Under the pieces are notes generated by a model. The model was given only the letters and a program-made list of their open reading frames with translations, was not told the origin of the DNA and searched no databases. Source: a virus. Taken from it: a DNA stretch of 64,000 nt. Positions within the stretch are counted from its first letter, which is position 1, and every line of letters begins with the position of its first letter. Location: IMG/VR virus record IMGVR_UViG_3300018080_005856, positions 1-64,000 of that record; one strand, written 5' to 3'. The position numbers and the translations under genes are program-made. Of this stretch, positions 31,783 to 47,896 are shown one piece after another.

Positions 31783-31793
31783 TGGTTACCTCC

Positions 31794-32066: not shown

Positions 32067-32332
32067 TTCTTTATCTCCTTGCCTTGTCAGATGTACCTAT
32101 CTGTTTATAATTATTATACCTTTCTGTTGCACTTATTCCTCGCCTATTGTTAAATATCCTTCTGTACCAATAGTTAACATCTTTTATGTGTCCACTAAAA
32201 TCAGGTTGTTCTAATAAATATTCTACTTTGCATAAATGTAATAGTCTTTTATCTATCATGTTTATCCCTCCGTATGATATTGAGCCGTCCTTCACACAAC
32301 ATCACATATTGACTTCGGGCTTCGCCACATCG

Positions 32333-32698
32333 TTAGTCGACATTGCCGCACTTTTTAGTTATGTTTGCAGCTAATTGATCTATATAGATTATTATTTTAT
32401 TTCTCATTTCCTCCTGAGTATCCGCACGATACCTGTATTCGAGATAATCTTCTATCTGATTTATGGTATTCTGGTAACTGCGGCAACGGTCGTCTAGCAC
32501 GGCATTTGAGTTCGCTTCGCACATTGCCTCATCCGGCTGTTTTTCCATGCATTCAGGACACTCAACATATGCATTGTCTTTTGTGGTATCATTTAATTTA
32601 TCTTTATATTTGCCTCTTAATCCTTTAATAAATTCTTTCCTCATTTTATTCTCATCCTCTGATTCTAAAAAGTACTCGTGCTTACACTTTTTACTCAT
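32333..32698 (-). CDS. Hypothetical protein
   Basis: ORF following tRNA-Pro. Confidence 0.6.
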   Translation of the reverse strand: MSKKCKHEYFLESEDENKMRKEFIKGLRGKYKDKLNDTTKDNAYVECPECMEKQPDEAMCEANSNAVLDDRCRSYQNTINQIEDYLEYRYRADTQEEMRNKIIIYIDQLAANITKKCGNVD

Positions 32699-32729
32699 AA
32701 CACTTTCCCCATGTCCTTTCCTCTAATAT

Positions 32730-32802
32730 TCGGGATAGAAGGATTCGAACCTTCGGACTCCTGGTCCCAAACCAGGCGTGGTGACCGCTCCACTATATCC
32801 CG
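32730..32802 (-). tRNA. tRNA-Pro(TGG), no encoded CCA
   Basis: CGGGATA-TA-GTGG/CCAC-CCTGG TTTGGGA CCAGG-GAAGG TTCGAAT CCTTC-TATCCCG-A. Confidence 0.92.
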
Positions 32803-33170
32803 TTATCCCCGCTACTAGCATATCTTGACCAGACATTAACATTATGTGGTCCAAAACATGCTACTATGTTCCTGGCTGGGGTGTGTATAAATCCTTTCTC
32901 TGAGTTCCCTTTATCATCCATTACATGTAACAATATTCTGACGGTATTGTTCTTGTCTATGCTCTGTATTTTACCTTCCACCCAGTGGGTTTTATGCAGC
33001 TTCTTTCCAGTGGTTGCTACTATTGGCGTGACCGCTTTATCAAAAGATATGGTAACTGCTTTATCCTTGTATTTTAACCAGCTATAGGCTCTCATAGTAT
33101 CAAACAAGCTAGGGGGCTCGCTAATGCACTTTGGACTGGGAGATTTCATCTTCCTTTTCCTCTTCCTCAT
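32793..33170 (-). CDS. Sm/Hfq-like paralogue
   Basis: LFDTMR...YKDKAVTI...VEGKIQSIDK..VRI...TPARNI. Confidence 0.5.
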   Translation of the reverse strand: MRKRKRKMKSPSPKCISEPPSLFDTMRAYSWLKYKDKAVTISFDKAVTPIVATTGKKLHKTHWVEGKIQSIDKNNTVRILLHVMDDKGNSEKGFIHTPARNIVACFGPHNVNVWSRYASSGDNGI

Positions 33171-33633
33171 CCTTGTCTTCCTTCATTAGTTCTTCTAGTG
33201 TAATCCCCTTGGCACTCATTATAAGCTCGTTCAGCTTCATTCTGGCAAATGCATTATCTCCAGCTTCATCCTTCATCCTCCTTGCTATATCACGCAGCCT
33301 TTCCATAGGCATCTCACTGGCTATCTCTGTTGCTCTGCTCTCTAGCATACTCATAATGGACATGGGGCCACTGCTCGGTATGTTCTCTCTTAGGTCTGAC
33401 AAGAGCTCCATTCCATTTGCCAGCTTTCTGTATTGGTCTACGAACATTAGGGCGAATACTCTTATCCGGTTAGGGTCCTCGGTTATCATTTTCTCTATGG
33501 CCTCTACTCTTTCCGACTGAGTTTCAGCGTTTGTCATCATGTTGGATATTACCTCGGCCCCTTTCTCGGCTATTTCCTGGGTGATACCACAGGCCTCAAA
33601 CATTGACTCAGCATCATGGTTATAGTCTTTCAT
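33121..33633 (-). CDS. Hypothetical helical protein
   Basis: AGGAGG RBS. Confidence 0.7.
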   Translation of the reverse strand: MKDYNHDAESMFEACGITQEIAEKGAEVISNMMTNAETQSERVEAIEKMITEDPNRIRVFALMFVDQYRKLANGMELLSDLRENIPSSGPMSIMSMLESRATEIASEMPMERLRDIARRMKDEAGDNAFARMKLNELIMSAKGITLEELMKEDKDEEEEKEDEISQSKVH

Positions 33634-33649
33634 ATCTTCCTCCTTGGGT

Positions 33650-33895
33650 CTATATAAATACTAGATCATTTGGGTTTGTTGCTACCCCTGTGTAGTTCAT
33701 AAACTCTTTCCAGTTGTTATCACAATGGAATACAACAAACACATACTTATCATTCCATGACTTTATTACGCCAACATCTACGCCATTCACATTCTTTGTT
33801 CCTTCTCTGAGTGCATCCAGTATGTTGACATGGTTAGCATGGTATAATACTGTCCTGCCTATGTCCCTATCTGTCAATGAATTTATCTCTATCAT
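33650..33895 (-). CDS. Hypothetical SH3-like phage protein
   Basis: DIGRTVLY...GVIKSWNDKYVFV...ATNPNDL. Confidence 0.65.
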   Translation of the reverse strand: MIEINSLTDRDIGRTVLYHANHVNILDALREGTKNVNGVDVGVIKSWNDKYVFVVFHCDNNWKEFMNYTGVATNPNDLVFI

Positions 33896-34323
33896 ATAAG
33901 TGCTCCATTATTGTCAGTAGCAGCTGGTTCAAATGTATAAAGGATGTCTTCTTCTCTTATCGTAGTTTCCAGAACATCAGCTATGTTATTCTTCAGAAAC
34001 GAGAGTGAGCATACCTTTTCCTTTATTGTTTTTGGAAGGAACATATCAAGGCACAGGGCGCTTCTAACAGCTCTGATCAAATGTATCTTGTCTATCCCCG
34101 TGAGGCTCCTGTTGGATCTCCAATTCCTCTTTGACCATTCCATAATGGCCCTTTCCCATTTCGCTATGTCCTTCGGGTACTTTCTAAACGATAACTGTCT
34201 TACCCCAAATACAGTCTTATGTACTGTAATCGCATATATATTATTAAGAAGACTAATAAATATTGCTCTTCCTCCAAGTTGTAATCCGGGTTGTGATCCA
34301 GATTGTTTATGTAGCTTGATCAT
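33892..34323 (-). CDS. Hypothetical protein
   Basis: Coupled ORF. Confidence 0.6.
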   Translation of the reverse strand: MIKLHKQSGSQPGLQLGGRAIFISLLNNIYAITVHKTVFGVRQLSFRKYPKDIAKWERAIMEWSKRNWRSNRSLTGIDKIHLIRAVRSALCLDMFLPKTIKEKVCSLSFLKNNIADVLETTIREEDILYTFEPAATDNNGALI

Positions 34324-34346
34324 CTCAATTCTCCAGGTTGTGAAAA

Positions 34347-34694
34347 CTACTCTTCATGTACCATGAAGCATTCTACCTCTAATGCTTCGTCCTCGTTCAA
34401 AACATCCAGATATTGATCCGGATATGGTACCAGATTTATATCTTCTATATTATGCTCAGGTACATCGAAGACTATTGATGGGTATACTGTACCCAGATTT
34501 GCAATCATAGTTACAGTTTCCCTTTCCGGAGATATTCTCTTCAACAAGACAGATAGTCTACGATATCCTCTGTTGTACGGGCCCATTCTAAAAGGACTAA
34601 ACTCTATTGGCATATAGAACCTAACGTTGCATATCTTGCCAACAAGATTGGTGAACCTTCCCATTCGGATAACCTTTGTTATGTCGTGACACAT
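34347..34694 (-). CDS. Sm/Hfq-like paralogue
   Basis: ITKVIR...LVGKICNV...LLKRISPERETVTM...VPEHNIEDI. Confidence 0.5.
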   Translation of the reverse strand: MCHDITKVIRMGRFTNLVGKICNVRFYMPIEFSPFRMGPYNRGYRRLSVLLKRISPERETVTMIANLGTVYPSIVFDVPEHNIEDINLVPYPDQYLDVLNEDEALEVECFMVHEE

Positions 34695-35062
34695 TAACTA
34701 TTTCCTGCGAAATCCTTTATCTTAACGATCTTTATAAACCCCGTATGGTATAACTCTTTTAGGGTGTCCATATGTATGCCTTTACAGCTATAATGGTCTG
34801 GTTTACCACTCTCATCTATCAACTTCATTATATTAGTCATAGAGGTATGTTCTACAGCCTGGTAGAGTGCGGCTTTGGCATGGTGTTCCTTTCCCCATGA
34901 ATGTTTGCCCTTCAGTGTCTTGACTCTCTTACCGTCTACCACAATACAGTATCCATCTTCATCGTCCATGACTTTGGTACTACTTTCTATGGCTTTCACA
35001 ACGGCGGCTCTGAAGCTCTTCTTCCTTATTTCTTCTGTGATATTAACCTTATCATTACTCAT
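34694..35062 (-). CDS. Hypothetical protein
   Basis: Coupled ORF. Confidence 0.6.
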   Translation of the reverse strand: MSNDKVNITEEIRKKSFRAAVVKAIESSTKVMDDEDGYCIVVDGKRVKTLKGKHSWGKEHHAKAALYQAVEHTSMTNIMKLIDESGKPDHYSCKGIHMDTLKELYHTGFIKIVKIKDFAGNS

Positions 35063-35068
35063 CTTTGC

Positions 35069-35440
35069 TTATTCTCCATTAACAATTGAGATTTCCGCCT
35101 CCCTCGCGTGACCTTCTCTGATCTCACGAATTATGTCTTTTACTGTGGTTGTGTTAAAGTCTACTACTGGATCTACTACTGGATTGTGGGTAATCCTTCT
35201 TATATACGTTGCTGGGATTCCCAAAAGAAGTACAATACCTTCAAAATATCCTGCTACATTAATTGTCCTAAGGTCTTCTGATATTTCCAGAACTACCACA
35301 TTCAAGGTGTCATATTGTCCAAACTCTTTGTATCCTGCTACCGTTATCATTACGTTCAAGTATATACGAGTGAAGCTATTAAGGTAGGGTTTAAAACCTT
35401 CAGCACGTAGTATATCTAATATATCCACACTTTGTTTCAT
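35069..35440 (-). CDS. Sm/Hfq-like paralogue
   Basis: ILDILR...YLNSFTRI...VVLEISEDLRTINV...IPATYIRRI. Confidence 0.5.
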   Translation of the reverse strand: MKQSVDILDILRAEGFKPYLNSFTRIYLNVMITVAGYKEFGQYDTLNVVVLEISEDLRTINVAGYFEGIVLLLGIPATYIRRITHNPVVDPVVDFNTTTVKDIIREIREGHAREAEISIVNGE

Positions 35441-35769
35441 AGCAGGGACACCTCAGCTTTCTCGAAGGCTTCGCTCTTGAACATATCAATAAGACGTTTG
35501 CTGTGCATATCACCAAGGCTAAGAGGCTCCACTCTCCTTACAAATCTTATAGGAATATCAGACAGAATGTTACAAGAATACCCAAAGTCGTATATTAGCC
35601 TAACATGTGAACAATCTTCTGATATTCCTAGTATTACCCCTACAAGCTCAAGTCCCCGCCATACCTCTTTGTCAGCAACTACATTAGCCAGTTTAATGAA
35701 ACAAATACAGCACAGTCTATTACTAAGCTCGGTAAACTGTGCCGCACGTATTACATCAGTGATGTTCAT
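35437..35769 (-). CDS. Sm/Hfq-like paralogue
   Basis: ITDVIR...LSNRLCCI...LVGVILGISEDCSHVRL...IPIRFVRRV. Confidence 0.5.
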   Translation of the reverse strand: MNITDVIRAAQFTELSNRLCCICFIKLANVVADKEVWRGLELVGVILGISEDCSHVRLIYDFGYSCNILSDIPIRFVRRVEPLSLGDMHSKRLIDMFKSEAFEKAEVSLL

Positions 35770-35774
35770 GGTGC

Positions 35775-36344
35775 CTATTTCATTATCTTCATAAGGTTAT
35801 CTTTTCCCATTCTCCTCAGGGCACGCTCCAGAAACTCTTGACTGTTGCAACGTATCTCTTGGGACGGTGGAGAATACCGACTGGAGAAAGTTACGGTGGC
35901 TAAGCTGTTAGTCTGGGTATCATAACAGATACCATACCTGCAACTTCTCCTGGGCTCTAGCTCGTCTAGTTCTTCTGCGAGGTCTCTAAGGCTTTGCGCT
36001 ATTATAAGAGCTTCTACATACTCTTCAGCTTCTTCCTCTGTCTTGAAGTAGTTTCCTATAGAGAATCTGAAATTATCTTCTCCACTTCTGGCATCTACAG
36101 TTTCCTCAATGGCTCCGTCATTTCCGACAAAGTGGTATGTGTCAAACCGTTTGCGCTTGCTGGTGCTCCGATGTTCTCCTCTCTCAAGCTTATCGATGTC
36201 CTCGCTCAGCTCTCTCACTTGCCTCTGATACATCAAAACACTATCTTCTAGAACTAGAAGCCTGTTGTCAATCTCCGATAGAGCATCTTTGATTTCCCTA
36301 TTTGAAAGACTCTTAGATATTGGTGCTTTAGATTTAGTGGGCAT
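35775..36344 (-). CDS. Hypothetical coiled-coil protein
   Basis: IGNYFKTEEEAE phage motif. AGGAGG RBS at 36344. Confidence 0.65.
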   Translation of the reverse strand: MPTKSKAPISKSLSNREIKDALSEIDNRLLVLEDSVLMYQRQVRELSEDIDKLERGEHRSTSKRKRFDTYHFVGNDGAIEETVDARSGEDNFRFSIGNYFKTEEEAEEYVEALIIAQSLRDLAEELDELEPRRSCRYGICYDTQTNSLATVTFSSRYSPPSQEIRCNSQEFLERALRRMGKDNLMKIMK

Positions 36345-37038
36345 TATGTTCCTCCTTTTCTTCACAGATATTGTGCGTATATCTCTTGTCATAGTTTGCT
36401 GTTGCTATTTCCAGAATTTCCCTGTTTATAGCTTTACCATGTTTATGAAACTCGAATGGTATATCACCAAACATATGAGATCCAAAACTACTAGAGAAGA
36501 ATTTCATCATATAGTTTTCTAGAATCCTGTTGTCTATTGATTGTACCAGTTCTACTAACAACGAAATGCCGTGTTTCCCTACAACCCGAGCTAGTGTTTC
36601 CACATCTTCCCTATTAGCAGCTCCACAAATTGTATGTATTGTAGGGCCCATGTGGCCCGTGTTTGCATATATCATGCATACATTCAGCATCCTATAACAG
36701 TTTTCACCAAACTTCTCTGCTTGATATGTTCTCAGTCTCTCGCCATATGTTCCTCTTCTGTAGAATACGTATCTATCTACGTCACCATCTAACATACCAA
36801 AGAACTTTAATGCTACCATGGTAGTCATCCACATGTTGATGTAATCTTCTTCCTTGCTTATGTATTTAAGCAGCTTCTTTGAAATCCATGGTATTTCATC
36901 TCCTGCTAGATCTGTTCTCTCGAAGAGTTCCAACATGGTTACCTCACTTTTGCCTCCGAATAGTTCCTCTACTCTTCTTCTTGGGTAGCCAGAACATGGC
37001 TTCCATGACATTATTAAACCTGGGGTCAGGGTTATCAT
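36334..37038 (-). CDS. Hypothetical protein
   Basis: Start moved to MITLTP, which has an AGGAGG RBS. Confidence 0.65.
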   Translation of the reverse strand: MITLTPGLIMSWKPCSGYPRRRVEELFGGKSEVTMLELFERTDLAGDEIPWISKKLLKYISKEEDYINMWMTTMVALKFFGMLDGDVDRYVFYRRGTYGERLRTYQAEKFGENCYRMLNVCMIYANTGHMGPTIHTICGAANREDVETLARVVGKHGISLLVELVQSIDNRILENYMMKFFSSSFGSHMFGDIPFEFHKHGKAINREILEIATANYDKRYTHNICEEKEEHNAH

Positions 37039-37085
37039 ATGATATTCCTCCTTTATTGTAATTTGTAGGTATAGAAACGAATAAA

Positions 37086-37454
37086 CTATTCGAACGAACA
37101 CTTAACCATAGTTGGTTTTGTACCGGACTTAGGTTGCGAATGAGTCCATGTATACATTGAGGGTACAGTATGTATCTCTCCTATCTTATCAAAGGGTATC
37201 CACATTCTTACTCGTGGGTATCCATACATGAAGGAGGAGTACTCGAATAATAGTTCATAATTATCATTTGTTCTTATCACTATTCCGTCTAGCTTGGAGG
37301 ATCTGTATATTTGACTCTTTTGGTCCTTCTCCTGGAGGATATTAACCTTTATCGCCCCGGCTATATGAATAACCACATGCTGGCCTATCTTATCTTCTAT
37401 GGATACTCGCCTCAGTTCGTTGAATATGTTAGCCACAGTGTGTCTCCTTCTCAT
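37086..37454 (-). CDS. Sm/Hfq-like paralogue
   Basis: IFNELRR...IGQHVVI...LDGIVIRTND...WIPFDKIGEI. Confidence 0.55.
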   Translation of the reverse strand: MRRRHTVANIFNELRRVSIEDKIGQHVVIHIAGAIKVNILQEKDQKSQIYRSSKLDGIVIRTNDNYELLFEYSSFMYGYPRVRMWIPFDKIGEIHTVPSMYTWTHSQPKSGTKPTMVKCSFE

Positions 37455-37855
37455 GCCGTAACGTAATATGTTGTTGTTTCATAGGACGCATACACTCCTC
37501 CAACATGGGCGGACATTTTGGAGTTGGTCCTAGGGTTGTCGTATAACATCTCCCAGGTTTCGCTACATCTTATCCTTCTTATACCGTAAATGAGATCTGC
37601 TGTTGTAGTATTTCTACCTGGAAAACCACTGCTGTGTGGCTGGATGAATATCTCAAACCCACTGTTGTATGCCAACTCGCGGATAGAGCTGATGTATACC
37701 CTAAATAAGTAATCTTGAATGAGCGATACATCTATATCTACAGGTCTTTTAGTAGATATAAGATTGCATAATCTTAAGGCCTGGCAGAAACCTATTTCAT
37801 CCACAAGGGCTTGCGGTAGCAAGCTGTGATTTGTCATGTCATTCCTCCTGCACAA
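37451..37855 (-). CDS. Hypothetical protein
   Basis: Coupled ORF. Confidence 0.6.
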   Translation of the reverse strand: MCRRNDMTNHSLLPQALVDEIGFCQALRLCNLISTKRPVDIDVSLIQDYLFRVYISSIRELAYNSGFEIFIQPHSSGFPGRNTTTADLIYGIRRIRCSETWEMLYDNPRTNSKMSAHVGGVYASYETTTYYVTA

Positions 37856-38213
37856 ACTTATCTAGGGATTTGGCGTTTACTCCAACAATTACATCCCATT
37901 CTGCGACGGTTGGCTTTACCATGTGCCTTGGTACTATACTGCTTATAGCATCAAAAGGAATTACAGCTCTCAAATCAATACTACTAGAAATGATTTGGTC
38001 TGGGCCAACCCTTGAATCAACAGTGAAACTATTATTGTCTACATATGTTACAATCCCATCCATGCATTCCACATATATGTTGGCTCTACTGTCAGGAATT
38101 AGATCATTATCATTTGCTGGTACCAGTACACATCTTTTCCCAATGTACTGTTCCAGTGACTTTCTTCTAAGTACATTAAACACAGTGGGAGATCTTTTTG
38201 ACATGTCAACCAA
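37839..38213 (-). CDS. Sm/Hfq-like paralogue (closest to Hfq)
   Basis: VFNVLRR...YIGKRCVL...MDGIVTYVDNNSFTV...VIPFDAISSIVP, compared with Hfq FLNALRR...QGQIESFD...VYKHAISTVVP. Confidence 0.6.
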   Translation of the reverse strand: MVDMSKRSPTVFNVLRRKSLEQYIGKRCVLVPANDNDLIPDSRANIYVECMDGIVTYVDNNSFTVDSRVGPDQIISSSIDLRAVIPFDAISSIVPRHMVKPTVAEWDVIVGVNAKSLDKFVQEE

Positions 38214-38374
38214 GCTCCATTACCTTAGCTTTCTTCTTAGTTCTGTAATAGTCAAGCACAAATTCTATATTCTTACCTATAGACCATTTACCCATAGGGG
38301 CGCTCTCTACAACTATTCCGTTCTCTTCTCTCAGACCGAAGACCCCATAAGGTAACTCTATTCTGTACCACATT

Positions 38375-38788
38375 TTATACCTTCCTAAACTTTATCCACT
38401 CTTTCCCATTCCATATCACATTATCATCCAATAAAGTTTCAGAGCTGCATTCCAATACATTGGCTAGATCTTCTTCATTGGGAGTATGTCTTCTCAGAAT
38501 ATCCTCATTTGTAACAGGGCTTACTGAGCGTATTTTGTCCACTGGTAGTGGTGCCAAAAAGGCAGTTCTTGTATCTATTAGTTTACCTTTTGGAGTTTCT
38601 CTCTTCCAGTGCATCACAAATAGTATACGGAGTTCTTCTCTATTTATGTCTAGTTGTTTGATAATAGCATAAAGGGAATACTTCGATTCTCTTAGTGATA
38701 TTAGACTAAGCATGTTCTTCATAGGGATATACCCAACCATTCTCAGGCAACTCATTGCGTTTATGTTACTATCCATCATACTCCTCAT
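38375..38788 (-). CDS. Sm/Hfq-like paralogue
   Basis: AMSCLR...MKNMLSLI...LYAIIKQLDI...LRI...LPVDKIRSVSP. Confidence 0.45.
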   Translation of the reverse strand: MRSMMDSNINAMSCLRMVGYIPMKNMLSLISLRESKYSLYAIIKQLDINREELRILFVMHWKRETPKGKLIDTRTAFLAPLPVDKIRSVSPVTNEDILRRHTPNEEDLANVLECSSETLLDDNVIWNGKEWIKFRKV

Positions 38789-39146
38789 TACATAGTATTC
38801 TGAGCCTGCACGGAGATATGCGTCTTATGGTTATTGTGTTGTTTATACCCATATAGTCGAAGGCATTTTCTGTTTCTACTATCCTGAAGCATTCCCCTAT
38901 ATGATCCTTTGAAAGTGTTCGCAGGAAGACAGCTGAGAACCTTTTTCCATCTATGACATATGTATCAGTCTCTGGTTCGTAAACCATGGTATCTTGTACT
39001 GATAGTAATGTTAACCATGGGAATAACAGCCAACGTAACCACGATGGTACTCTTTCTCCCTCTTTTCGTTTGAGTATCTTCCTGAAAATGACCCTGGCTA
39101 CAGTCCTCTTGTACTTCAGGTACTTATTGATAAGCTTGCTAATCAT
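38769..39146 (-). CDS. Hypothetical protein
   Basis: ORF in a co-oriented run. Confidence 0.6.
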   Translation of the reverse strand: MISKLINKYLKYKRTVARVIFRKILKRKEGERVPSWLRWLLFPWLTLLSVQDTMVYEPETDTYVIDGKRFSAVFLRTLSKDHIGECFRIVETENAFDYMGINNTITIRRISPCRLRILCNEEYDG

Positions 39147-39150
39147 GGGA

Positions 39151-39675
39151 TTAACCTGCCTTCTTCTTTCTTAACGGTTTTCCTTTGACCTTGGCCACTT
39201 CCGCAGATAGTTTGTCCAAAATGGATACCGCCGCTTTGGAAACACGTGATAGTTTATCCTTCAGCAGTTGGATGTCATACTCTATCGATTCAAAGAACTC
39301 AGTTCTAAGGTCTTCATCGCTTATAACATCGGTATATTTCATATAGCCACGACCAGATGTTCTGTTTCCTGGAGTGGATACATATTCTCTTACCTCTATT
39401 GGCTTTGCTTGTTTTCCTCCAGGTATGACAACTATTTTCATTTCCCTTATGAGTTCTGACGCTACTCCTAGATTGTACTTCTCTGCCGCTTTCTTCGTAT
39501 CCCATTCAAACGCATGATACTTATGTGTATACGACTTAGGGTTCTTGGCCAGTTTGTAAACCATATACTGATCCAGGTAACCGTCGTTATTGTCGCAAAG
39601 TTCCTTCAGTTCCTTTCTTATCTGGGACCTCACGTTAGGACCACGCTTCTTTCTAGTTGCTTTCTCGTTCTTCAT
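39151..39675 (-). CDS. Basic helical protein, candidate partner of the Cas7-like gene
   Basis: G.L....V...A..P.S..H...FEWD...AA..Y.L..A..LIR pattern, which I recognise from phage genes next to solo RAMP-like genes. AGGAGG RBS. Confidence 0.6.
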   Translation of the reverse strand: MKNEKATRKKRGPNVRSQIRKELKELCDNNDGYLDQYMVYKLAKNPKSYTHKYHAFEWDTKKAAEKYNLGVASELIREMKIVVIPGGKQAKPIEVREYVSTPGNRTSGRGYMKYTDVISDEDLRTEFFESIEYDIQLLKDKLSRVSKAAVSILDKLSAEVAKVKGKPLRKKKAG

Positions 39676-39706
39676 GTTGTTCCTCCTGTTATATATTATA
39701 TATGTT

Positions 39707-39728
39707 AAAAGAGAGGCCGAAGCCTCTC
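39707..39728 (-). terminator. Intrinsic terminator closing the periodic RNA
   Basis: GAGAGGC-TTCG-GCCTCTC-TTTT on the minus strand. Confidence 0.85.
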
Positions 39729-39742
39729 ATAACTTTGATGCA

Positions 39743-39797
39743 GACGAGTTGAATTGTGATGACTTGAACTGCTTCAAATCGTGACGCGAGGACCCGG
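39743..39797 (-). repeat. Eleven-unit 5-nt-period array (NCR-NN), candidate guide RNA
   Basis: CCG GG/TCC TC/GCG TC/ACG AT/TTG AA/GCA GT/TCA AG/TCA TC/ACA AT/TCA AC/TCG TC. C at position 2 in 10 of 11 units and a purine at position 3 in 10 of 11. Confidence 0.75.
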
Positions 39798-39815
39798 CAA
39801 CTATTATTCATAGTT

Positions 39816-39829
39816 CATATATATGGAAA
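39816..39829 (-). promoter_or_regulatory. Phage motif copy TTTCCATATATATG driving the periodic RNA
   Basis: Perfect consensus copy abutting the stop codon of the Cas7-like gene. Confidence 0.7.
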
Positions 39830-40471
39830 CTACTTATCAGATATCTTAAATCTGCCATTCATTCCACCCTTTCCAGATTTAGCTTCAGCTCTTCCAACGC
39901 CCAAACCAACTTCAAGGCCGGCTCTGTGCATCAGTTCTGTCAGTGTTTTTACCGATATTGTATCGGCATCATACTCTACCCTTGCCTTGATGCTCCATGT
40001 TTCCCACATTGTGCATATTGACGCCACAGATTTACCTTGGTCAGTTCTCACTACCCTGGGTAAGCATACTGGTGTTCCAACTACCTCTATAACCGGTGTT
40101 CCACATCTCCTATCAACCCCATCAGCCAGAGAGAATACCGTTTGTTTCATCTGGTTCATGGTGAGATCCGTATTCCTTGCTGCAGAGATTAGAGCAGACC
40201 TTATGGATAATGCACTTATTCCTATCTTGCCTTTTCCAAAGGTGTACCTGCTTTCTAAGTATAAGTACTCAAGATCAGGTTTCTCCTCCGCACCTCTCCT
40301 TGCTCGCTTCCCCGGTTCCTTGTCGAATAGGGACTTTATAATTCTGTCCCTCGATTCCCCTGACATTCTGTGACATATCAGTGGAGAAATACCCTTAAGA
40401 TGAAATACAACTATCTTGTGGTTGGGCATCACAGATAGTACTTGTTCCTTACTTTTCTTTGATGGTGCCAT
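39830..40471 (-). CDS. Solo Cas7/RAMP-like protein (213 aa)
   Basis: Beta1 VFHLKGISPLICH, helix ISALSIRSALISAA, WSIKARVEY, Gly-rich loop AGLEVGLGVGR...GRFKI. AGGAGG RBS at 40471 and a motif copy at 40495-40508. Confidence 0.75.
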   Translation of the reverse strand: MAPSKKSKEQVLSVMPNHKIVVFHLKGISPLICHRMSGESRDRIIKSLFDKEPGKRARRGAEEKPDLEYLYLESRYTFGKGKIGISALSIRSALISAARNTDLTMNQMKQTVFSLADGVDRRCGTPVIEVVGTPVCLPRVVRTDQGKSVASICTMWETWSIKARVEYDADTISVKTLTELMHRAGLEVGLGVGRAEAKSGKGGMNGRFKISDK

Positions 40472-40554
40472 GAGTGTCCTCCTTTCTATATTTTCAGGAA
40501 TATGGAAACTACAGATTGGGACATTGGGTTCCAGACCTTGGAAAGAAAGGGGAC

Positions 40555-40749
40555 CTAGTCCCCCTTGGTGTTGTCTTTCCTGACCTGACATAGCAAGTAT
40601 CTCTTTGCTATTGCCATGTTCATTTGATAACGGATGGCCCATGATTGAATATCCATAGCCGGCCGTTCAATTGATTTCTCATAATCAACTAGATCCGTTC
40701 CAAACATGGTCAGTGATTTAATGATATCTACTCTACCTGTCTTTGACAT
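40555..40749 (-). CDS. Hypothetical protein
   Basis: ORF followed by a terminator hairpin. Confidence 0.5.
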   Translation of the reverse strand: MSKTGRVDIIKSLTMFGTDLVDYEKSIERPAMDIQSWAIRYQMNMAIAKRYLLCQVRKDNTKGD

Positions 40750-40752
40750 AAT

Positions 40753-41172
40753 CTATTCTCCGGCTTCTGCCTCCTTTAGCGCGCAGTTGATGCACACCAT
40801 GCGGCCGTCCCTATGCCTCTGAATCCTGAGGCTCTTTGGGGTGTTACTCCAGTATTCTCCACATACATCGCATTTCTCCATATCTGTAGCCCCAAGTTCG
40901 CCTTCCCTTTGATTCATGGCATCTGGGTCAGTTTTCTGGCAGCCACAGTTTTCGCATACCATGTACTCGTCTTCCAGCAACCACCCACAACGACACTCCC
41001 ACATAGGTATCAGGCATTCAGCATAACCAGTTTCCGCTTTTGACTGCCTCTCTTTCTTCCATTTGGAACACACTTCAAGAGCATCTTCCAAGTCGTAGAA
41101 TTCTCCCTTGTGCCATATATTAGAGGTAATGCCGTCTTTGTGATAGCCTATTGATACTACTTTGTACTTCAT
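40753..41172 (-). CDS. Zinc-finger protein
   Basis: WECRCG...CENC, CDVC...CINC. Confidence 0.65.
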   Translation of the reverse strand: MKYKVVSIGYHKDGITSNIWHKGEFYDLEDALEVCSKWKKERQSKAETGYAECLIPMWECRCGWLLEDEYMVCENCGCQKTDPDAMNQREGELGATDMEKCDVCGEYWSNTPKSLRIQRHRDGRMVCINCALKEAEAGE

Positions 41173-41184
41173 TTAGGAACCTCC

Positions 41185-41376
41185 TTACTGTTCAAATGGG
41201 TTGTACTGCAGCAAACACCAATCTAGCCGTAGTTCTCTTCTCTTTCGCTTCTTCTTCTTCCATGGGAGCTTCTTTGATTCTTCCCATTCTCTGAAGATGC
41301 GTTCTTTCATAGATGCTTTGGCTTCTGCAAGGTCACATAGAGTTTGCGACATTATTTGCAAATAAGTTCTCCTCAT
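41185..41376 (-). CDS. Small basic hypothetical protein
   Basis: ORF with RBS. Confidence 0.55.
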   Translation of the reverse strand: MRRTYLQIMSQTLCDLAEAKASMKERIFREWEESKKLPWKKKKRKRRELRLDWCLLQYNPFEQ

Positions 41377-41423
41377 AGTTTCTATTCCTCCTTTATATAG
41401 TCTATTCTATGGAATTGCTCCAC

Positions 41424-41669
41424 CTATAGTCCTTGTGGCATTGGCATCCAGCCAGCAACATCTTCGCATGCTATATATGCTGGAATGAATCCATCATCAA
41501 AGTATAATGCGTTCTTAAGCTGATCTCTATAGCATGTGCCACCAAATTCCTGGTCATCTTTGGACAGATAACCAACGGTGACCCGGTTGCGTGTCCTATT
41601 GGGATAGACCAGTGACAGTATAATTGTCTTACCCTCTATAGGGTCCCTATCCGTAATCCAGTCATTCAT
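41424..41669 (-). CDS. DUF551-like protein
   Basis: MNDWI..RDP...VAGWMPMP. Confidence 0.65.
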   Translation of the reverse strand: MNDWITDRDPIEGKTIILSLVYPNRTRNRVTVGYLSKDDQEFGGTCYRDQLKNALYFDDGFIPAYIACEDVAGWMPMPQGL

Positions 41670-41670
41670 G

Positions 41671-41991
41671 TCATGACCTCCTCTCTTTCATTTCGAGCCT
41701 CTCGAGTCTCTCGTTCTCAAGCATATCCACCATTCTTCTATAGGCCTCATCTAGCATCTCTATGTGATCCATCGGGTAGCCGGTCCAAGTCATCATCTCT
41801 GCTACTATTTGACCAAACCATTTTACCAAACCGCCCATACTTGAGAGATCGCGCCCGGCCATGTCTAGTGGGCTACCTTGCACTTTTGTGCTGTTGACAA
41901 CCCCGATTAGATCCTCGAGGAAGCTAGCCTTGTTAGCTAATTCCCTAATGACATTACTCATGTCCTCGATCAGTTCGTCTTTTATTACCAT
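41671..41991 (-). CDS. Hypothetical protein
   Basis: AGGAGG RBS. Confidence 0.65.
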   Translation of the reverse strand: MVIKDELIEDMSNVIRELANKASFLEDLIGVVNSTKVQGSPLDMAGRDLSSMGGLVKWFGQIVAEMMTWTGYPMDHIEMLDEAYRRMVDMLENERLERLEMKERRS

Positions 41992-42009
41992 TGTTCGTCC
42001 TCCTTACTA

Positions 42010-42375
42010 TTATATGTTACTATTAGCATAGAAGATAATAGTGTTAGGTTTATCCAAGGATTCTGCCAGATCTAGTGAGTGCTTTGTTCCTCTGCTTTCT
42101 CCATCCCAGAATGCCAGAACCATGTCACAATGATCCACTATGAGCTTATTCCTCTTGTATCCCGCTGATTTGCCGTACTTGTTCCACTCAGCTCTGAATA
42201 CTGTCAAGGGTATATTGTTCTCATTCGCATATCTTGCTCCCAGGGAATCAGCTCCCCTGGCACCGCCAGATACTATTTCCTCTATTTCGTGACCGTTTCT
42301 TATGAGCTCTTCAACACTCTGCTTGAGTAATTCATAGTCGTCGAATTCTCTTGATCCTATTATTGCTAGTATCAT
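42010..42375 (-). CDS. DUF2493/YspA-like SLOG-family protein
   Basis: IIGSR.F.DY, IVSGGARGAD, AEWNKYGKSAG.KRN, FWDGESRGT. Confidence 0.9.
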   Translation of the reverse strand: MILAIIGSREFDDYELLKQSVEELIRNGHEIEEIVSGGARGADSLGARYANENNIPLTVFRAEWNKYGKSAGYKRNKLIVDHCDMVLAFWDGESRGTKHSLDLAESLDKPNTIIFYANSNI

Positions 42376-42499
42376 GTTACATCCTCCTTAAGTTATATTC
42401 ATATATATAGAAAGGCGAATCTTAAGCCATGTGTTCCAGAGTACCAGTAAAAGAAGCGGGCGTTAGCCCGCGGTTGTTTCTCACTATGATGACCTATTG

Positions 42500-42781
42500 C
42501 TACTCGGGGTAGCTGTTGTCGCCCTCGGCTTCAGCTTCCTCGGGTTGCTCTTTATTAGCTTCAGCAACAGAGCCACTTACCTTCTCAAGATACTCCTTTG
42601 CAGGTATTGTGACTTCATAGGTCGGAAGTATGATGGTCGTCCTCATGATGTCTTCACCGGTTGACTTGTTCTTATAGTCACCCTTACGCTCTCTGAACTC
42701 ACATTTCTTGAGAACTTCCTCATCAAATAAGCCCATCTTCTTTAGCTGAACGAATTGGCCTCTAGTAATCGTACATTGCAT
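42500..42781 (-). CDS. Hypothetical protein with an acidic tail
   Basis: Own motif copy (42844), RBS and terminator. Confidence 0.65.
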   Translation of the reverse strand: MQCTITRGQFVQLKKMGLFDEEVLKKCEFRERKGDYKNKSTGEDIMRTTIILPTYEVTIPAKEYLEKVSGSVAEANKEQPEEAEAEGDNSYPE

Positions 42782-42857
42782 GACGATACCCTCCTGTTTG
42801 TGATTCGCGAATCAAGAATGATTCACGCGAGATATTTCTATCTCATATGTATGGAAA

Positions 42858-42940
42858 GGAAAGGGCCTTTCGGCCCTTAGGGATCATAGCGTTTATCAAA
42901 CAAGGGATGACCCCTTATCAATCATCATACTAGGAGATAC
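42858..42940 (-). ncRNA. Candidate ~80-nt sRNA
   Basis: ORF-free unit from motif copy 42941-42954 to the terminator AAGGGCC-GAAA-GGCCCTT. Confidence 0.5.
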
Positions 42941-42951
42941 CATAAATATGG

Positions 42952-43104
42952 AAAAAGAGAGCTGGCCTGCTCTCTTAATCCGTGCGTGTTATAGTATTGG
43001 CTTTGTTCCTGCGGTCAGCCTACCCAGCAGTTGAGCAGTTACAGGAACTATAAGTGCTCACCACCGGCTCCTCTGGATCCGCGAAATCCTTCGGGATAAC
43101 ACAC
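42952..43104 (-). ncRNA. Candidate ~150-nt structured RNA with pseudoknot
   Basis: TGGTATAAT at 43111-43119. Stems GTGTGTTAT/ATAACACGC and GTTCCTG/CAGGAAC, with TGAGCA/TGCTCA crossing them. Terminator at 42955-42976. Confidence 0.55.
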
Positions 43105-43139
43105 CTCTGTATTATACCACGAGTAAGGAATCGAAGAAA

Positions 43140-43340
43140 CTATCCTCCGGCTCCATGCTTACAAAGACAGTCCTTAGACACACACTTACCTGTGTGATCA
43201 ACCTGACATGGGCCGCAGCCTTCACATATAACTACGGCATACATGCCTTTCCTGGTATCCTCTTCTGATGATAAACCGGATAGATCGCCTAGATCTTCAC
43301 CAAAGTGATCTATACTGCACTGCTTACAGAAATCAGCCAT
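43140..43340 (-). CDS. Small Cys-rich phage protein
   Basis: MADFCKQCS...ICEGCG...VDH.G.C...C...H. Confidence 0.7.
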   Translation of the reverse strand: MADFCKQCSIDHFGEDLGDLSGLSSEEDTRKGMYAVVICEGCGPCQVDHTGKCVSKDCLCKHGAGG

Positions 43341-43398
43341 AGCTATTCCTCCTGTATTATAGTCACAGTTATGGAAAAGATGAGAGCCAGAGGCTCTC

Positions 43399-43677
43399 TT
43401 ATCCGAGATGTATGGGTCTGTTCTTCATATAGATATAGGCAACAAGTCCAGCTACGGCTACACATCCGAATCCTGTGAGGAACAGGTACAGAATAGTAAG
43501 CCATATGCTTCCAGTTCCTATCAAGAACAGAACTATTGAGCCTGTAGCCATGGCCCCTACTATCCATAGTTTCTTATCGTAGATATTCGGGTTGTTTCTC
43601 TTTACATTCACTGAGAATGCCCACCAGCTTACTACGATAGAAGCCACATAAACCAGAACGGCTAGAAATGTAATCAT
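43399..43677 (-). CDS. Small membrane protein
   Basis: 3 TM segments. GGAGGAGG RBS. Confidence 0.65.
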   Translation of the reverse strand: MITFLAVLVYVASIVVSWWAFSVNVKRNNPNIYDKKLWIVGAMATGSIVLFLIGTGSIWLTILYLFLTGFGCVAVAGLVAYIYMKNRPIHLG

Positions 43678-43722
43678 GATAACACCTCCTCCATCTATTC
43701 TATCAGTAAGGAAAGAAGGGGA

Positions 43723-43923
43723 CTACTCGTCCCCGAAGATGTTGTCCTGGCATTTCTGGCACAACCCTGATATTTCGTACTCTTTCCGAGATAGATCATC
43801 TCTGAAGCTATTCGGATTAGGGAGTACTACTTGATGGCAAATAGGACATCTACGTGACTCTATGTCCTTCTTTGCCTCAGGGAATACCTTGAATACGGGT
43901 TTGTTAAGATCTGGTTTATTCAT
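43723..43923 (-). CDS. Small zinc-finger phage protein
   Basis: CPIC...FRDDLSRKEY.ISGLCQKCQD..F. Confidence 0.7.
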   Translation of the reverse strand: MNKPDLNKPVFKVFPEAKKDIESRRCPICHQVVLPNPNSFRDDLSRKEYEISGLCQKCQDNIFGDE

Positions 43924-43984
43924 GTCTAAACAGCCTCCAGACTAACCATATTATGAATATTACTATCAACAATTCCATGACTGG

Positions 43985-44640
43985 CCTCCTTATCATAAGT
44001 ATGAAATTTATCCCCCTTTCCTGTATCCGGGGTACCATTGTCCCTTCAGACTCGCGCCCCTCTTGAGGAAGCTTAATAATAACAGAGCGCACCATTCCAG
44101 ACATCTGCGAGCGAACGGCGCCAGCCGGCCGGAGATGCACAGCTATGCCTGTCATTCTACCGTGCGTCATTCAAGAGATGGAATTAAGCCTCGCGAGGGA
44201 CTAAAGAGAAATACTCTGACGGCTACTCGTCAATAGTCTAATAAGGGATTATCGCCCGGGAAAATAGCCCTGTAACCCAGTACATTTCCCTATGGCTCCG
44301 GCTATTGCTCGGTCACTCTCCCCCTCAAGGGGGCCGGACGCCTCTTACAATCCTATTTCTCAGCTGTTTTCATGTACATCCCTCTCCTGTACATGAATGC
44401 TGTCGACACTTCCATAAATCCTCCGGGGAAAGGGTAATCACCCCCAGATATCCAGTATAAATACTGATATATCCAGGGACGGGGGAGGAAATCCCCCGGA
44501 CCCCCTCTATTCCTAGCCAATCAAGATCCTGAACCGGTAAAATATATAGATCGGGTATGAGCCGATCCATATATCTGTCACAGAAGCGTCAGCCACACCC
44601 CTGCCGGTCGGCCCCACCAATGGCTGAAATGGGAAGGCCC
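43985..44640 (-). ncRNA. Candidate large (~650-nt) structured RNA
   Basis: Starts at motif copy 44641-44654. GC-rich with many long stems and no ORF with an RBS. Confidence 0.6.
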
Positions 44641-44671
44641 CATTTGTATGGAAAAGAAGAGGCCGTAGCCT

Positions 44672-44938
44672 CTATTCATTGCTAGTTGATATGACTATTC
44701 GCCCTTCATCATCAAACTCGTTGTTGTGTTCGTATGGGTTATACCCCATCCTCTTTAAATCATGTAAGGCGGCACGGCAGGATTTTATCTCGCCGTTGCA
44801 ACTAAAGACGATAAGTATGGTGATATGGTCACCAGTATGCTCGTCCACCGCGCAGAGGTCAACGTTAGTATGGACGGACTTCTCCAGCACTATACACCAG
44901 TGCTTGTTTTCTTTATGTTTTCCTTCAAACATTCTCAT
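44672..44938 (-). CDS. Hypothetical protein
   Basis: RBS, structured leader, motif copy at 45028, terminator. Confidence 0.65.
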   Translation of the reverse strand: MRMFEGKHKENKHWCIVLEKSVHTNVDLCAVDEHTGDHITILIVFSCNGEIKSCRAALHDLKRMGYNPYEHNNEFDDEGRIVISTSNE

Positions 44939-45058
44939 CTCTATTTCCTCCTTGTTTTATCATAGCCAATTTGGGGGGTCTACCAAAGCAGAACACCCCC
45001 AAAGTAAGCTATTATGATCAACGTCCTCATAAATATAGAAAAGAAGAGGCCGTAGCCT

Positions 45059-45334
45059 CTATACTCGCCAGGTTCTTATATCATTGACGGCCTTACTAAT
45101 ATCAACGTGTTGAGCCAGAATATCTCGGGCTACGTCTATCTTTCCCTGTCTGTAGGCCTCGTACCATATGGCCTGAGTAAGCTCAGATATTGCTTTTATA
45201 TCCTCATCTTTTACATCCTTTCCCATATGTACTACCTTATCCAGGAACTGGAAAGCGCATCTGTGGATTTGAACTCGGTGCAGCTCACTATCCTCTGAAA
45301 ACGTTACTTCACATAGAACTAAAGAATCGTCCAT
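45059..45334 (-). CDS. Hypothetical protein
   Basis: Start moved to MDDSLV (AGGAGGT RBS). Motif copy at 45379. Confidence 0.65.
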   Translation of the reverse strand: MDDSLVLCEVTFSEDSELHRVQIHRCAFQFLDKVVHMGKDVKDEDIKAISELTQAIWYEAYRQGKIDVARDILAQHVDISKAVNDIRTWRV

Positions 45335-45408
45335 GTATATTACCTCCTTTAATGTAGTTGACTTATGATCAATGTCCTCGTAAATATGGAAAAGAGGGCT
45401 ATTAACCC

Positions 45409-45846
45409 TCAGTGTGAGCATGGTGCCCCTGTAGCAAGGCGCGCCTCAGCGTCAGCGGGGTTCTCACCCGCATTTACATGGACAAACTCTATTTCTATTT
45501 GGTCCTTCACACGAGTTATCCACTCCTGGTACTCTTTTGTGGCCGGTTTCTTAGCCTTCCAAGAGCCATTCGCCCAAGCAGATACACCTTCGTAGTAGTG
45601 TTTAATGACTACTTTCTCGTACCCCTTGGAATGAGCATATCTGACAGCCTCTATGGCTGCCTTGATTTCGCCCCCTACGTTCCTCATAGAGACAATATCG
45701 TCCCTAACTAAGGCGCCATGGGCTTTATACCCATCAGAAGCCACTATCCCCCAACCCACAAGGGTTGGATTATTAATAGTAAACGAGCCGTCAGTATAAA
45801 CCTCTATAGTTCTCACAACATCACCTCCAATACAGATATATAACAA
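45409..45846 (-). CDS. rnhA: Ribonuclease HI (true start probably the GTG near 45817)
   Basis: VYTDGS, RNVGGEIKAA, Y.GV..WA.G.WKA, F.HV.A..N..AD..A. The second catalytic Asp position appears as H/Y (IKHYYEG). Confidence 0.8.
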   Translation of the reverse strand: MLYICIGGDVVRTIEVYTDGSFTINNPTLVGWGIVASDGYKAHGALVRDDIVSMRNVGGEIKAAIEAVRYAHSKGYEKVVIKHYYEGVSAWANGSWKAKKPATKEYQEWITRVKDQIEIEFVHVNAGENPADAEARLATGAPCSH

Positions 45847-46248
45847 ATCTCATATATATAGAAACACGCTATATTACCTCTTTTATTACCTTTACATACT
45901 GAGATATTACCCTCACTACATACATCTCATTGCCCTTACATACAATATGGGGGTGCGTCCCTCTATACAGTACTCCCCTTCTATGCCATTACAATACCTA
46001 TACCGGGTACAATACAATACAATACTAGATACAATACCAGGTACATGAACTTGACAGGGCTAGGACGCTCATTATTTATATACTGAGCTATTATTTGTGA
46101 CCTGACTTATGCAGGTCATTATATGGGTTTAAGACCCATATTATTGGCAAAACTGTCAGATTCTTGACAGTAATTTGCTTATGGGTTCCCCTCCCTAAAG
46201 GGCACCCTCCCCATGTGTTCCTTATGTGTTTTTATGTTAAAAGGGGGC

Positions 46249-46584
46249 CTAGTGGCCCCAGATCTTATGGTCTTGATACTTCCATATAGGCAGTGATATG
46301 CTATATACTAGGGCGCCTAGCACCGCAGTATTTCTACAGTAGTACCAGAGACACTTCAATATGGCCGGATAGCCGTAATAATACGCTACCAGGGTCCATA
46401 TTCCGAATATGAAGGAACAGGTATATGCCAGCATAGCTAGCGTTTCACTTTCCCTCCATGTTGCCATTCCTATCAGGAATAGCACCGCAGTTATAATATG
46501 TAACCCATACGCTACAGATAGGACACTTCCGTATTCTGTAGACTGACTCAGTATGGGCCTTCCCTCTATAATGAACCAATCCAC
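46249..46584 (-). CDS. Membrane protein
   Basis: 3 TM segments. GGAGG RBS with GTG start. Confidence 0.65.
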   Translation of the reverse strand: MDWFIIEGRPILSQSTEYGSVLSVAYGLHIITAVLFLIGMATWRESETLAMLAYTCSFIFGIWTLVAYYYGYPAILKCLWYYCRNTAVLGALVYSISLPIWKYQDHKIWGH

Positions 46585-46764
46585 GATTACCTCCAGTAAG
46601 TATGATTATATTGTACTTTCTTGCTGTTATGGGCTGTCACAGCAAGGAGACGAGGGGGTAGCCTAAGTACATAGGCATCCAGATTCCGAGTCAGGTACTG
46701 GCTAAACGACAGTCCTGATTCTCACCCATGGGTATGGAAACGTAAAGGGGAGGGCCTTAGCCCT

Positions 46765-46944
46765 CTATTCTAATGTGGTTACGATCTCTTTTACCAACTC
46801 CATTCCCTCTTTCCCATACTCTATGAGTTTAGGGAGTTCATCTCCGGAGATCTCATATTTGAGATCTACTTTGGCGCCTGACAGGCTGAACTTCTCGTCC
46901 GGGACTTCAAGGGACTTTACTTCGAATGTCATTTGCATGATCAT
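46765..46944 (-). CDS. 59-aa hypothetical protein (not in the ORF track)
   Basis: MIMQMTFEVKSLEV..., AGGAG RBS, motif copy at 46985, terminator. Confidence 0.6.
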   Translation of the reverse strand: MIMQMTFEVKSLEVPDEKFSLSGAKVDLKYEISGDELPKLIEYGKEGMELVKEIVTTLE

Positions 46945-47035
46945 GATATATACTCCTGTTAGTATGATTTGGGACTCTATATCCCACTATTATGGAAAGA
47001 TGAGGGCCTATTAAGCCCTCTATGTTTACTCGGTT

Positions 47036-47308
47036 TTAACCCTCTCTGACGGTAGCTGTCTGCCGGGACAATTTCTCCATCTTTACGAGGGCTTTCTGCT
47101 CTTTCCTGTATGCGTTTACAGCATTAAGCAGGTGCTGCCTGCAGACGTGGCAGGACATGATATGATCGATTGTTTCGATGTTATCATGAATGAGCTTCTC
47201 GCTCTTCTCTGCATTGTTACAGGTATTATGTTCGACCCACTTCTTCTCCAGTTTGTGAGAAGTGTTTGCGAGTCCTGTTACGGCGTTAGTTACTATGTTC
47301 TTAAACAT
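47036..47308 (-). CDS. Hypothetical protein
   Basis: AGGAGGT RBS, motif copy at 47333, H...C..C. Confidence 0.65.
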   Translation of the reverse strand: MFKNIVTNAVTGLANTSHKLEKKWVEHNTCNNAEKSEKLIHDNIETIDHIMSCHVCRQHLLNAVNAYRKEQKALVKMEKLSRQTATVREG

Positions 47309-47344
47309 AGTGGTACCTCCTTAGGTAATATTCATGAGTATGGA

Positions 47345-47472
47345 AAAGAGAGGCGAGCCGGTGCAATATCCTGCGTGCCCTCGTTAACTTTCAGATGTTT
47401 CGGGAGTAACCCTATCAACTGTTGGTATGGAGTGACGCATTCCCTTTCCCCGTTGGGACACCGTGATCCTCT
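47345..47472 (-). ncRNA. Candidate ~125-nt sRNA
   Basis: ORF-free unit between two motif copies. Its ends pair (GAGG..CGGTGT / GCACCG..CCTC-TTTT). Confidence 0.5.
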
Positions 47473-47495
47473 CATTTATATGGAAAGAGAAGGGG

Positions 47496-47684
47496 CTATG
47501 CCCCTAGGATTGACATTCCTGTGTATTTCCCTTTCTCCAGGGTTTCTACCACCGCTTTCTTTATAAGATCAGTAGGCCTGCCAAGGATAACACCCAGAAA
47601 CAGAACGAAGTCTGCCTCTTTCTTGTTTACCTCTGGGGCACCAGATTCTCTGATCTTCCGCTTCCAAATTGACATTGATATCAT
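47496..47684 (-). CDS. Hypothetical protein
   Basis: GAGGAGGT RBS. Confidence 0.55.
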   Translation of the reverse strand: MISMSIWKRKIRESGAPEVNKKEADFVLFLGVILGRPTDLIKKAVVETLEKGKYTGMSILGA

Positions 47685-47896
47685 CTCAGTACCTCCTCAA
47701 TATTGATATGAATCCCGGCTTCCTCAAAACGTCTTACTGTCTCGAGGTTATCTATGAACCCGGGTAACTCTCTCTTTACCTGCTGTAGCATGCGGGTGAG
47801 CTTTTGCCTCGCTACAACATTCCTACGAATCTTATCAATATCAGAGTCATTAAGGCCCTGTATAAAGCGTATAGCTTTAATCATATCTATTTTCAT
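47681..47896 (-). CDS. Hypothetical protein
   Basis: AGGAGG RBS and motif copy at 47944. Confidence 0.6.
   Translation of the reverse strand: MKIDMIKAIRFIQGLNDSDIDKIRRNVVARQKLTRMLQQVKRELPGFIDNLETVRRFEEAGIHINIEEVLR

Follow-up and report, generated by a model that had tools for sequence, protein, structure and literature searches.

VIPR is a CRISPR-related, RNA-guided silencer of DNA that was described in a set of 2026 preprints (bioRxiv 10.64898/2026.04.26.720920, 10.64898/2026.04.26.720927 and 10.64898/2026.10.15.759431). The published systems are mostly phage-borne and consist of Vipr, a protein of the RAMP family, of vrRNAs made up of 9-16 GGY-NN units and a structured tail, and of the accessory gene vap; when DNA is silenced, two bases are paired and one is skipped. 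The preprints already report systems with a single vrRNA as well as forms with a consensus other than GGY, the forms NNNGG, YNNNG and NNNNG being named in the methods of 10.64898/2026.04.26.720920, and solo vrRNAs used in trans are documented in the same literature. Here we analyze a vipr-vap locus at positions 39,151-40,508 of a 64,000-nt stretch of DNA (hereafter the window), which comprises positions 1-64,000 of the IMG/VR virus record IMGVR_UViG_3300018080_005856, a record of 150,487 bp from an uncultured phage with an estimated completeness of 79%. The original prediction, made from the letters of the window, had proposed a candidate non-CRISPR system and mentioned a report of phage RAMP systems named VIPR with GGY-NN RNAs. 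That report exists, and the locus belongs with it: a profile match to the Vipr of phage SUSP1 and the synteny with vap make it a member of VIPR, a kind of system already published, and not a new class. Relative to the main text of the preprints, what appears to be new in its sequence is a pyrimidine-only scaffold paired with the loss of both guanine-contact residues.

Two described groups invite the closest comparison. Like the type II VIPR of the Escherichia phage SUSP1 (PDB 36pp), the locus combines a minimal RAMP bearing a thumb and a G-loop with an accessory gene in a phage genome, and the SUSP1 vrRNAs, at about 100 nt, consist of 5-nt units and then a structured 3' tail, as is predicted here. 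SUSP1, however, has four GGY-NN guides and a pseudoknot tail, whereas the present locus has a single guide whose scaffold is C only and whose tail is a plain UUCG hairpin; SUSP1 R138 and D177, both required for silencing, correspond to Cys and Val here, and the sequence relation is distant. The second group is the FEWD-vap VIPR clade (phrog_4652 and phrog_15946), represented by g34/g33 of Cyanophage Cy-LDV1, the Mycobacterium phages Philus and Donkeykong, and the Gordonia phages UmaThurman and Ecliptus. This clade shares the gene order, the sense-strand array beside vipr and the phage-borne setting, and its guides have 9-12 units. Its members differ in carrying several GGC-NN guides per locus (4-7 called), compared with one guide and no G phase here.

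Class 1 CRISPR subunits (Csm3, Cmr4 and Cas7) have the fold in common with our protein (Z 10-11); they polymerise along a guide, and their thumb flips out bases at a fixed period. That period is 6 rather than the 5 seen here, and they come with multi-gene cas operons and CRISPR arrays. A class 1 CRISPR-Cas effector was considered for the locus and rejected despite the common fold: a repeat scan of the 150,487-bp record found no CRISPR-like spaced repeats, which bears out the earlier claim that no CRISPR array is present, and the record holds one Vipr-family profile match and no second RAMP, no search having been aimed at other cas families. In sum of features, the locus shares with VIPR a Vipr-related RAMP, the lack of a CRISPR array, an adjoining vap and a sense-strand tract of 5-nt units whose number falls within 9-16; it has neither a constant GGY nor any of the published NNNGG, YNNNG or NNNNG forms, and residues that hold G1 and G2 are replaced.

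Vipr, Vap and the tract between them

The 213-aa open reading frame (ORF) at 39830..40471 begins with an ATG behind a ribosome-binding site (AGGAGG), and its product has the motifs LKGISPLICH and GLEVGLGVGR...GRF; the ORF lies on the minus strand, which carries all genes in this part of the window. An exhaustive HMMER search returned 1035 homologues at E<=1e-3, the nearest of them only 35% identical, and a profile of 50 homologues matched PDB 36pp_D, 'SUSP1 Vipr protein', with an E-value of 9e-8. A PDB search with the single sequence yielded only noise, with no similarity to class 1 CRISPR subunits at the sequence level, and Pfam has no family for either vipr or vap. The AlphaFold (AF2) model, with a predicted local distance difference test (pLDDT) score of 92, shows a thumb formed by a long beta-hairpin (131-168) as well as a loop rich in Gly (189-206). 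Foldseek matched this model to CRISPR RAMPs only (E 4e-5), the top PDB matches all being Cas7, Csm3 or Cmr proteins, and the best structural alignment was with Csm3 (Z 11.2 over 149 residues, root-mean-square deviation 3.7). Judged by model and profile, the ORF is a Cas7-fold RAMP of the Vipr family, and the earlier identification as a RAMP is borne out by the structural comparison.

Between vipr and vap lies a gap of 154 nt that holds a promoter-like motif, an 11-unit tract, a short linker and a UUCG hairpin followed by TTTT. The motif, TTTCCATA-TATA-TG (39816..39829, minus strand), touches the vipr stop codon TAG (39832-39830), and a small RNA is predicted to start near G39816. The tract (39746..39800, minus strand) reads as 11 five-base units of the form [x x C][R N] by base counts at each unit position, and the tail hairpin GAGAGGC-UUCG-GCCUCUC (39728-39711) with its TTTT (39710-39707) resembles an intrinsic terminator (39707..39728 in all, minus strand). 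Judged from motif and terminator, a vrRNA-like transcript of about 111 nt (39706..39816, minus strand) would comprise a 5' hairpin (AACUAU-GAAUA-AUAGUU in the fold, 39799..39815, minus strand), the 11-unit array and the 3' tail, and would be close in size to published vrRNAs. No Rfam family matches the predicted RNA, and the genome contains no second copy of its 5' or 3' elements.

Behind the terminator, and preceded by an AGGAGG site between the TTTT and the gene, comes the vap-like accessory gene (39151..39675, minus strand), which encodes a basic protein of 174 aa with an isoelectric point of 9.7 and a FEWD motif. Together with the 213-aa ORF and its motifs, the promoter motif at the stop codon, the 11 units and the UUCG terminator, this gene had been described in the original prediction, and all of these elements are present at the positions given here, on the minus strand. 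The protein matches phrog_15946 and is 30% identical to g33 of Cyanophage Cy-LDV1 (E 2e-11); none of its 54 relatives is named. Homologues of vap adjoin vipr in seven related loci, namely in Cy-LDV1 and in six others, among them the metagenomic L007 and L009, Mycobacterium phage Philus and the Gordonia phages UmaThurman and Ecliptus. Cy-LDV1 presents the arrangement most plainly, with a vipr that is 29% identical (E 7e-28), a GGC-NN array in the same gap and then the vap homologue. The model of Vap (pLDDT 90) found nothing informative in the PDB, where the best Foldseek match (E 0.36) was to MarR-type regulators, and in a wide structural search only its C-terminal helical hairpin aligned, at Z<8. 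Vap may bind DNA, a role that we borrow from the VIPR paper only.

The scaffold base and the guanine contacts

At the fifth position of the unit, the array has C in 10 of 11 cases, and the one exception is T, which makes the position a pyrimidine throughout (11/11). The two positions before it carry G in 3/11 and 2/11 units, which equals the background. The scaffold does differ from GGY, as had been claimed, with C in all units except one and no enrichment of G. The same claim went further and took C together with the following purine as the constant element gripped by the protein. The base after the C is indeed a purine in 10/11 units; in the canonical arrays of relatives, however, the first guide base (N4) is a purine in 209 of 299 units (70%) and the second is unbiased. 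The purine therefore need not belong to the scaffold, and its frequency matches the bias of the relatives; probably, to judge from these sequences, the pyrimidine alone is constant. The prediction that homologues would be followed by periodic DNA held in that 5-nt arrays stand in the same gap and on the same strand, and failed in that the constant element there is GGY and not CR. Published non-GGY vrRNAs likewise consist of 5-nt units with a reduced constant part, but one or more G remain in each of NNNGG, YNNNG and NNNNG, whereas the array here, on the strand of the gene, keeps only a pyrimidine (YNNNN).

How guanines are held in a Vipr filament is described in the SUSP1 cryo-electron microscopy paper, from which we took the roles of residues; the numbering was checked on the profile alignment to 36pp_D, anchored on invariant residues. 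In SUSP1, G1 is held by H17 and D177, G2 by R138 and W178, and Y3 by a pocket that includes R179, and either D177A alone or R138A alone abolishes silencing. The counterpart of R138 is C153 in our protein, a column with Arg in 145 of 149 homologues and in which this protein has the sole Cys. That of D177 is V192, where 119 of the 149 homologues have Glu and 3 have Asp. R194, the counterpart of R179 in the Y3 pocket, is kept and is invariant among the 149 homologues. H34, which corresponds to H17, is kept too, in a column that holds His in 52 and Asn in 51 of the 149. Further near-invariant columns of the G-loop are altered as well (S197A, S200G, G204M and W205N). In all of six comparators that have GGC arrays, the thumb retains D-[IL]-R-x-R and the G-loop retains G-x-G-[ED]-[GW]-R-P; the present Vipr has VASIC and GLGVGRA instead. 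At this one locus, the protein has lost G-contact residues where the guanines of the array are also lost, and the two losses co-occur.

In a quick tree of homologues, the sister clade keeps Arg and Glu at the columns of the G2 and G1 contacts, and two of its loci (L146 and L148) have G-based period-5 signals adjoining vipr on the sense strand; the loss of G contacts is therefore taken to be derived in this lineage. In a 1-kb contig (L006) of P0002, a relative that deviates at 153 or 192, the period-5 signal did not rise above controls.

Since the guanines are absent and the residues that hold them are lost, we favor, as a reading that we rate rather likely, a VIPR locus of vipr, one vrRNA gene and vap in which register is set by a single pyrimidine, in a unit of the YNNNN type. 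Under such a scheme, the phage promoter at 39829-39816 would drive the sense RNA of about 111 nt, which would end at the UUCG hairpin. Vipr protomers would load along the 11-unit tract, one per 5-nt unit, and the pyrimidine of each unit would sit in its protomer's pocket, which contains the conserved Arg. The two bases that follow (R, N) could then be presented for gapped pairing with double-stranded DNA, in which two bases are read and one is skipped, and a competing mobile element might be silenced as a result, with help from Vap. The published SUSP1 work is the source, by analogy, for silencing as the function, for the loading of protomers into a filament, for NN as the guide frame and for the rule of one skipped base.

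The programmability of published VIPR rests on a fixed GGY scaffold that is gripped by defined residues. A natural member without the guanines or their contacts, yet with the pyrimidine and its pocket, would show that the scaffold code is open to evolution and that a single pyrimidine in each unit may suffice to set register. This is relevant to what fixes the period of a RAMP filament and to the freedom with which such guides could be engineered. It also has a consequence for detection, as loci of this type will escape any caller that insists on GG[C/T]NN. A bolder proposal, which we consider quite improbable, is that the lineage gave up guanine recognition, that the protomer is anchored on the single pyrimidine and presents the freed positions to the target, and, separately, that loading of Vipr gates read-through into vap. 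Were the freed positions presented, up to 4 of the 5 bases would be read instead of 2, a move in the direction of CRISPR Cas7 filaments with their near-contiguous pairing. As for vap, Vipr that loads while the tract is being transcribed could tip the balance between the terminator and a competing long-range pairing and thereby gate read-through.

Chance, strand and decay as rival explanations

Several observations weigh against the YNNNN reading. In the protein, around 18% of relatives also have no acidic residue at 192, so that this column is not strictly tied to G1, and H34, the counterpart of the second G1 contact, is retained. Vipr has the longest terminal branch in a quick tree of 150 homologues; taken with the distance to its nearest homologue (35% identity), its substitutions could reflect general divergence or decay. 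In the DNA, the chance of a period-5 run with the same base in 10 or more of 11 units somewhere in the 150-kb genome is 0.175 for G on the plus strand (that is, the minus-strand C of the array) and 0.11 for C on the plus strand, as estimated from first-order Markov shuffles with the genome's own dinucleotide transitions. The single array is of low information (4.31 bits, compared with 4.09 for the best control period), and the five contigs that carry the gene are identical, which makes the constant and variable positions of the array inseparable. As to the RNA, only four T follow the tail hairpin, which is under the threshold of the terminator scanner; hairpins at the phage's other promoter cassettes likewise have short T/C tails. 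The minimum free energy (MFE) fold of the predicted transcript (-30.3 kcal/mol, z -2.95) pairs the array with the tail rather than leaving it single-stranded. What the computations show is membership in the family, the RAMP fold, the synteny, the strand, the period of 5 and a joint loss of guanines and their contacts; the claim built on these points is a lead from the sequence of one locus and its homology, not an established result.

The figures for chance and information also lend themselves to another explanation, in which the phase of the tract is fortuitous and the tract is a cis-regulatory leader, an attenuator controlling vap, so that Vipr would borrow its guide in trans or from an unassembled part of the genome. 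The fold is suggestive in this respect: the first units (GCCGGG, CCUC) pair with the loop and the 5' arm of the terminator hairpin in an antiterminator-like manner. In addition, vap has no TTTCCATA promoter of its own, and its expression may depend on read-through of the terminator; the record is only 79% complete, and the documented solo vrRNAs show that use in trans occurs. On the other hand, a period-5 run of this kind within the 154-nt gap has a P of 0.0054 (20000 dinucleotide shuffles), and it falls exactly at the syntenic position of the relatives' arrays. It is the only such signal within +/-3 kb of vipr and, by information, the best period-5 signal in 37-43 kb; six relatives' loci with a standout GGY array reach 5.0-7.0 bits. 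The periodicity is weak alone, and its weight comes from the position of the tract. A fortuitous phase would also have to account for the pyrimidine in 11/11 units and for a unit count of 11, inside the published range. A guide from elsewhere fares no better, as the 150-kb record is devoid of GGYNN arrays with 5 or more units, and a GGY guide would hardly be usable by this protein because its G contacts are missing. We therefore regard a regulatory leader with a chance phase as unlikely.

Strand poses a separate question. Read from the plus strand, the tract becomes (NNNYG)n, and the guide would be of the published NNNNG type, antisense to the 3' end of vipr. This reading has the attraction that G, the base that published scaffolds keep, occurs in 10/11 units, that NNNNG is among the forms named in the first VIPR paper (10.64898/2026.04.26.720920), and that an AT-rich segment at 39681-39702 could hold a host-type -10 element. 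The array would fit NNNNG only in this antisense reading, however, and the strand evidence disfavors it. With a simple caller for GGY arrays of at least 5 units, we found 36 arrays in the loci of seven relatives, all on the strand of vipr and none antisense (0/36). All copies of the promoter motif and the hairpin with its T run face the minus strand; for a plus-strand transcript, the hairpin would lie upstream of the tract with no terminator behind it, and no sigma-70-like site was scored there. The protein argues in the same direction, given that the thumb Arg for G2 is missing while the pyrimidine pocket still has its Arg; an NNNNG guide would require the opposite. An antisense guide is accordingly doubtful, and promoter motifs, terminator and the strand of the relatives' arrays together lead us to place the predicted RNA on the sense strand.

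A decaying remnant, in which protein and array alike would have lost their function by drift, is very improbable: the longest terminal branch among 150 homologues, the changes in near-invariant columns (R153C, S197A, S200G, G204M and W205N) and target scans with matches at chance level only would suit it, but the ORF is intact and gives a confident RAMP model (pLDDT 92), all family-invariant glycines and R194 are retained, vap is intact, both transcription units carry the exact phage promoter word, contigs from five runs in four studies carry the identical locus, and random drift would not preserve a pyrimidine in 11/11 units. Jointly, the antisense guide, the chance leader and the decaying remnant make up a substantial minority of the probability, appreciably below an even chance.

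Candidate targets and genomic surroundings

Exact-pattern scans for targets used the canonical frame, in which the NN doublets read GG CT GT GA GA AG AA AT AA AA GT with one skipped base. With up to 3 mismatches allowed, the full pattern does not occur in the genome of the phage itself, and viral contigs do not contain it either. The nine doublets at its center matched 76 times in metagenomes, 38 times in genomes and once in viral sequences, and none of these matches extends at both ends; its end windows gave 6 viral matches each. The best match (10/11 doublets), of which about 0.5 would be expected by chance, lies in an unrelated viral contig (L092), on the antisense strand of a large ORF whose first codon positions coincide with the skip base; matches of 9/11 doublets fall in unrelated proteins. 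In the alternative frame [CRN][NN], 10 viral matches from 4 sequence families were found and none extends, and a contiguous four-base reading with one base flipped gave no match.

In Cheoctovirus mycobacteriophages and UmaThurman, temperate actinophages (L012-L014), vipr and vap lie in the immunity region, between the repressor/antirepressor and the excise gene, a placement that fits a role in prophage-prophage conflicts. Guide arrays in these phages have been annotated as protein. In Philus (L012, 2147-2500), the GGC-NN array beside the vipr homologue appears as a long N-terminal extension of gp52 that is rich in Gly, Ala, Arg and Trp and starts MAGMARHGAAWQG. In UmaThurman (L014, 3125-3448), gp40, a 107-aa Arg/Gly-rich 'hypothetical protein', is the vrRNA array next to the vipr homologue, translated in the deposited annotation.

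The promoter-like motif at the array is part of a larger set. TTTCCATA occurs 21 times in the window, compared with 4.25 expected, and the full TTTCCATA-N4-TG is found 12 times in the genome, on the minus strand in every case and always between 29.6 and 48.0 kb. If a gene stands behind the motif, a ribosome-binding site follows within ~60 nt; the other copies precede apparently non-coding sequence. One of the 12, TTTCCATA-TTCC-TG, lies before vipr (40495..40508, minus strand). A 13-nt word, GTAGTTTCCATAT, is common to both promoters of the vipr locus, its copy before vipr being at 40512-40500, and the copies at 29607 and 47957 have exactly the TATA-TG version that stands before the array. Many of the twelve motifs (29594-47957, minus strand) sit behind GC-rich DNA that ends in a short T/C tail, and in one case this DNA has been shown to be a hairpin. 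By their sequence, these units look like promoter-to-terminator cassettes of a phage-specific transcription program. Just upstream of the cluster is an 814-aa ORF (49014-51458) with no Pfam match.

Upstream of the vipr promoter motif, a 64-aa ORF (40555-40749, minus strand) ends at a hairpin, GGGGAC-TAG-GTCCCC, followed by TTTCTTT (40549-40563); vipr therefore seems to begin its own transcription unit. The five phage contigs that carry this gene belong to five runs in four studies, whose samples (sediment and seawater) date from 2018 and 2021; the contigs encode an identical protein and are also identical across the intergenic DNA. Among the public runs listed as carrying the phage, none is an RNA run. 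From its sequence, the phage appears very distant from characterised phages. Five of the six largest ORFs tested (365-1417 aa; regions 5996-17491, 49014-51458 and 61465-63960) match no Pfam family, and the sole match among the six is that of the ORF at 12978-14534 to DUF285 / BspA-type leucine-rich repeats.

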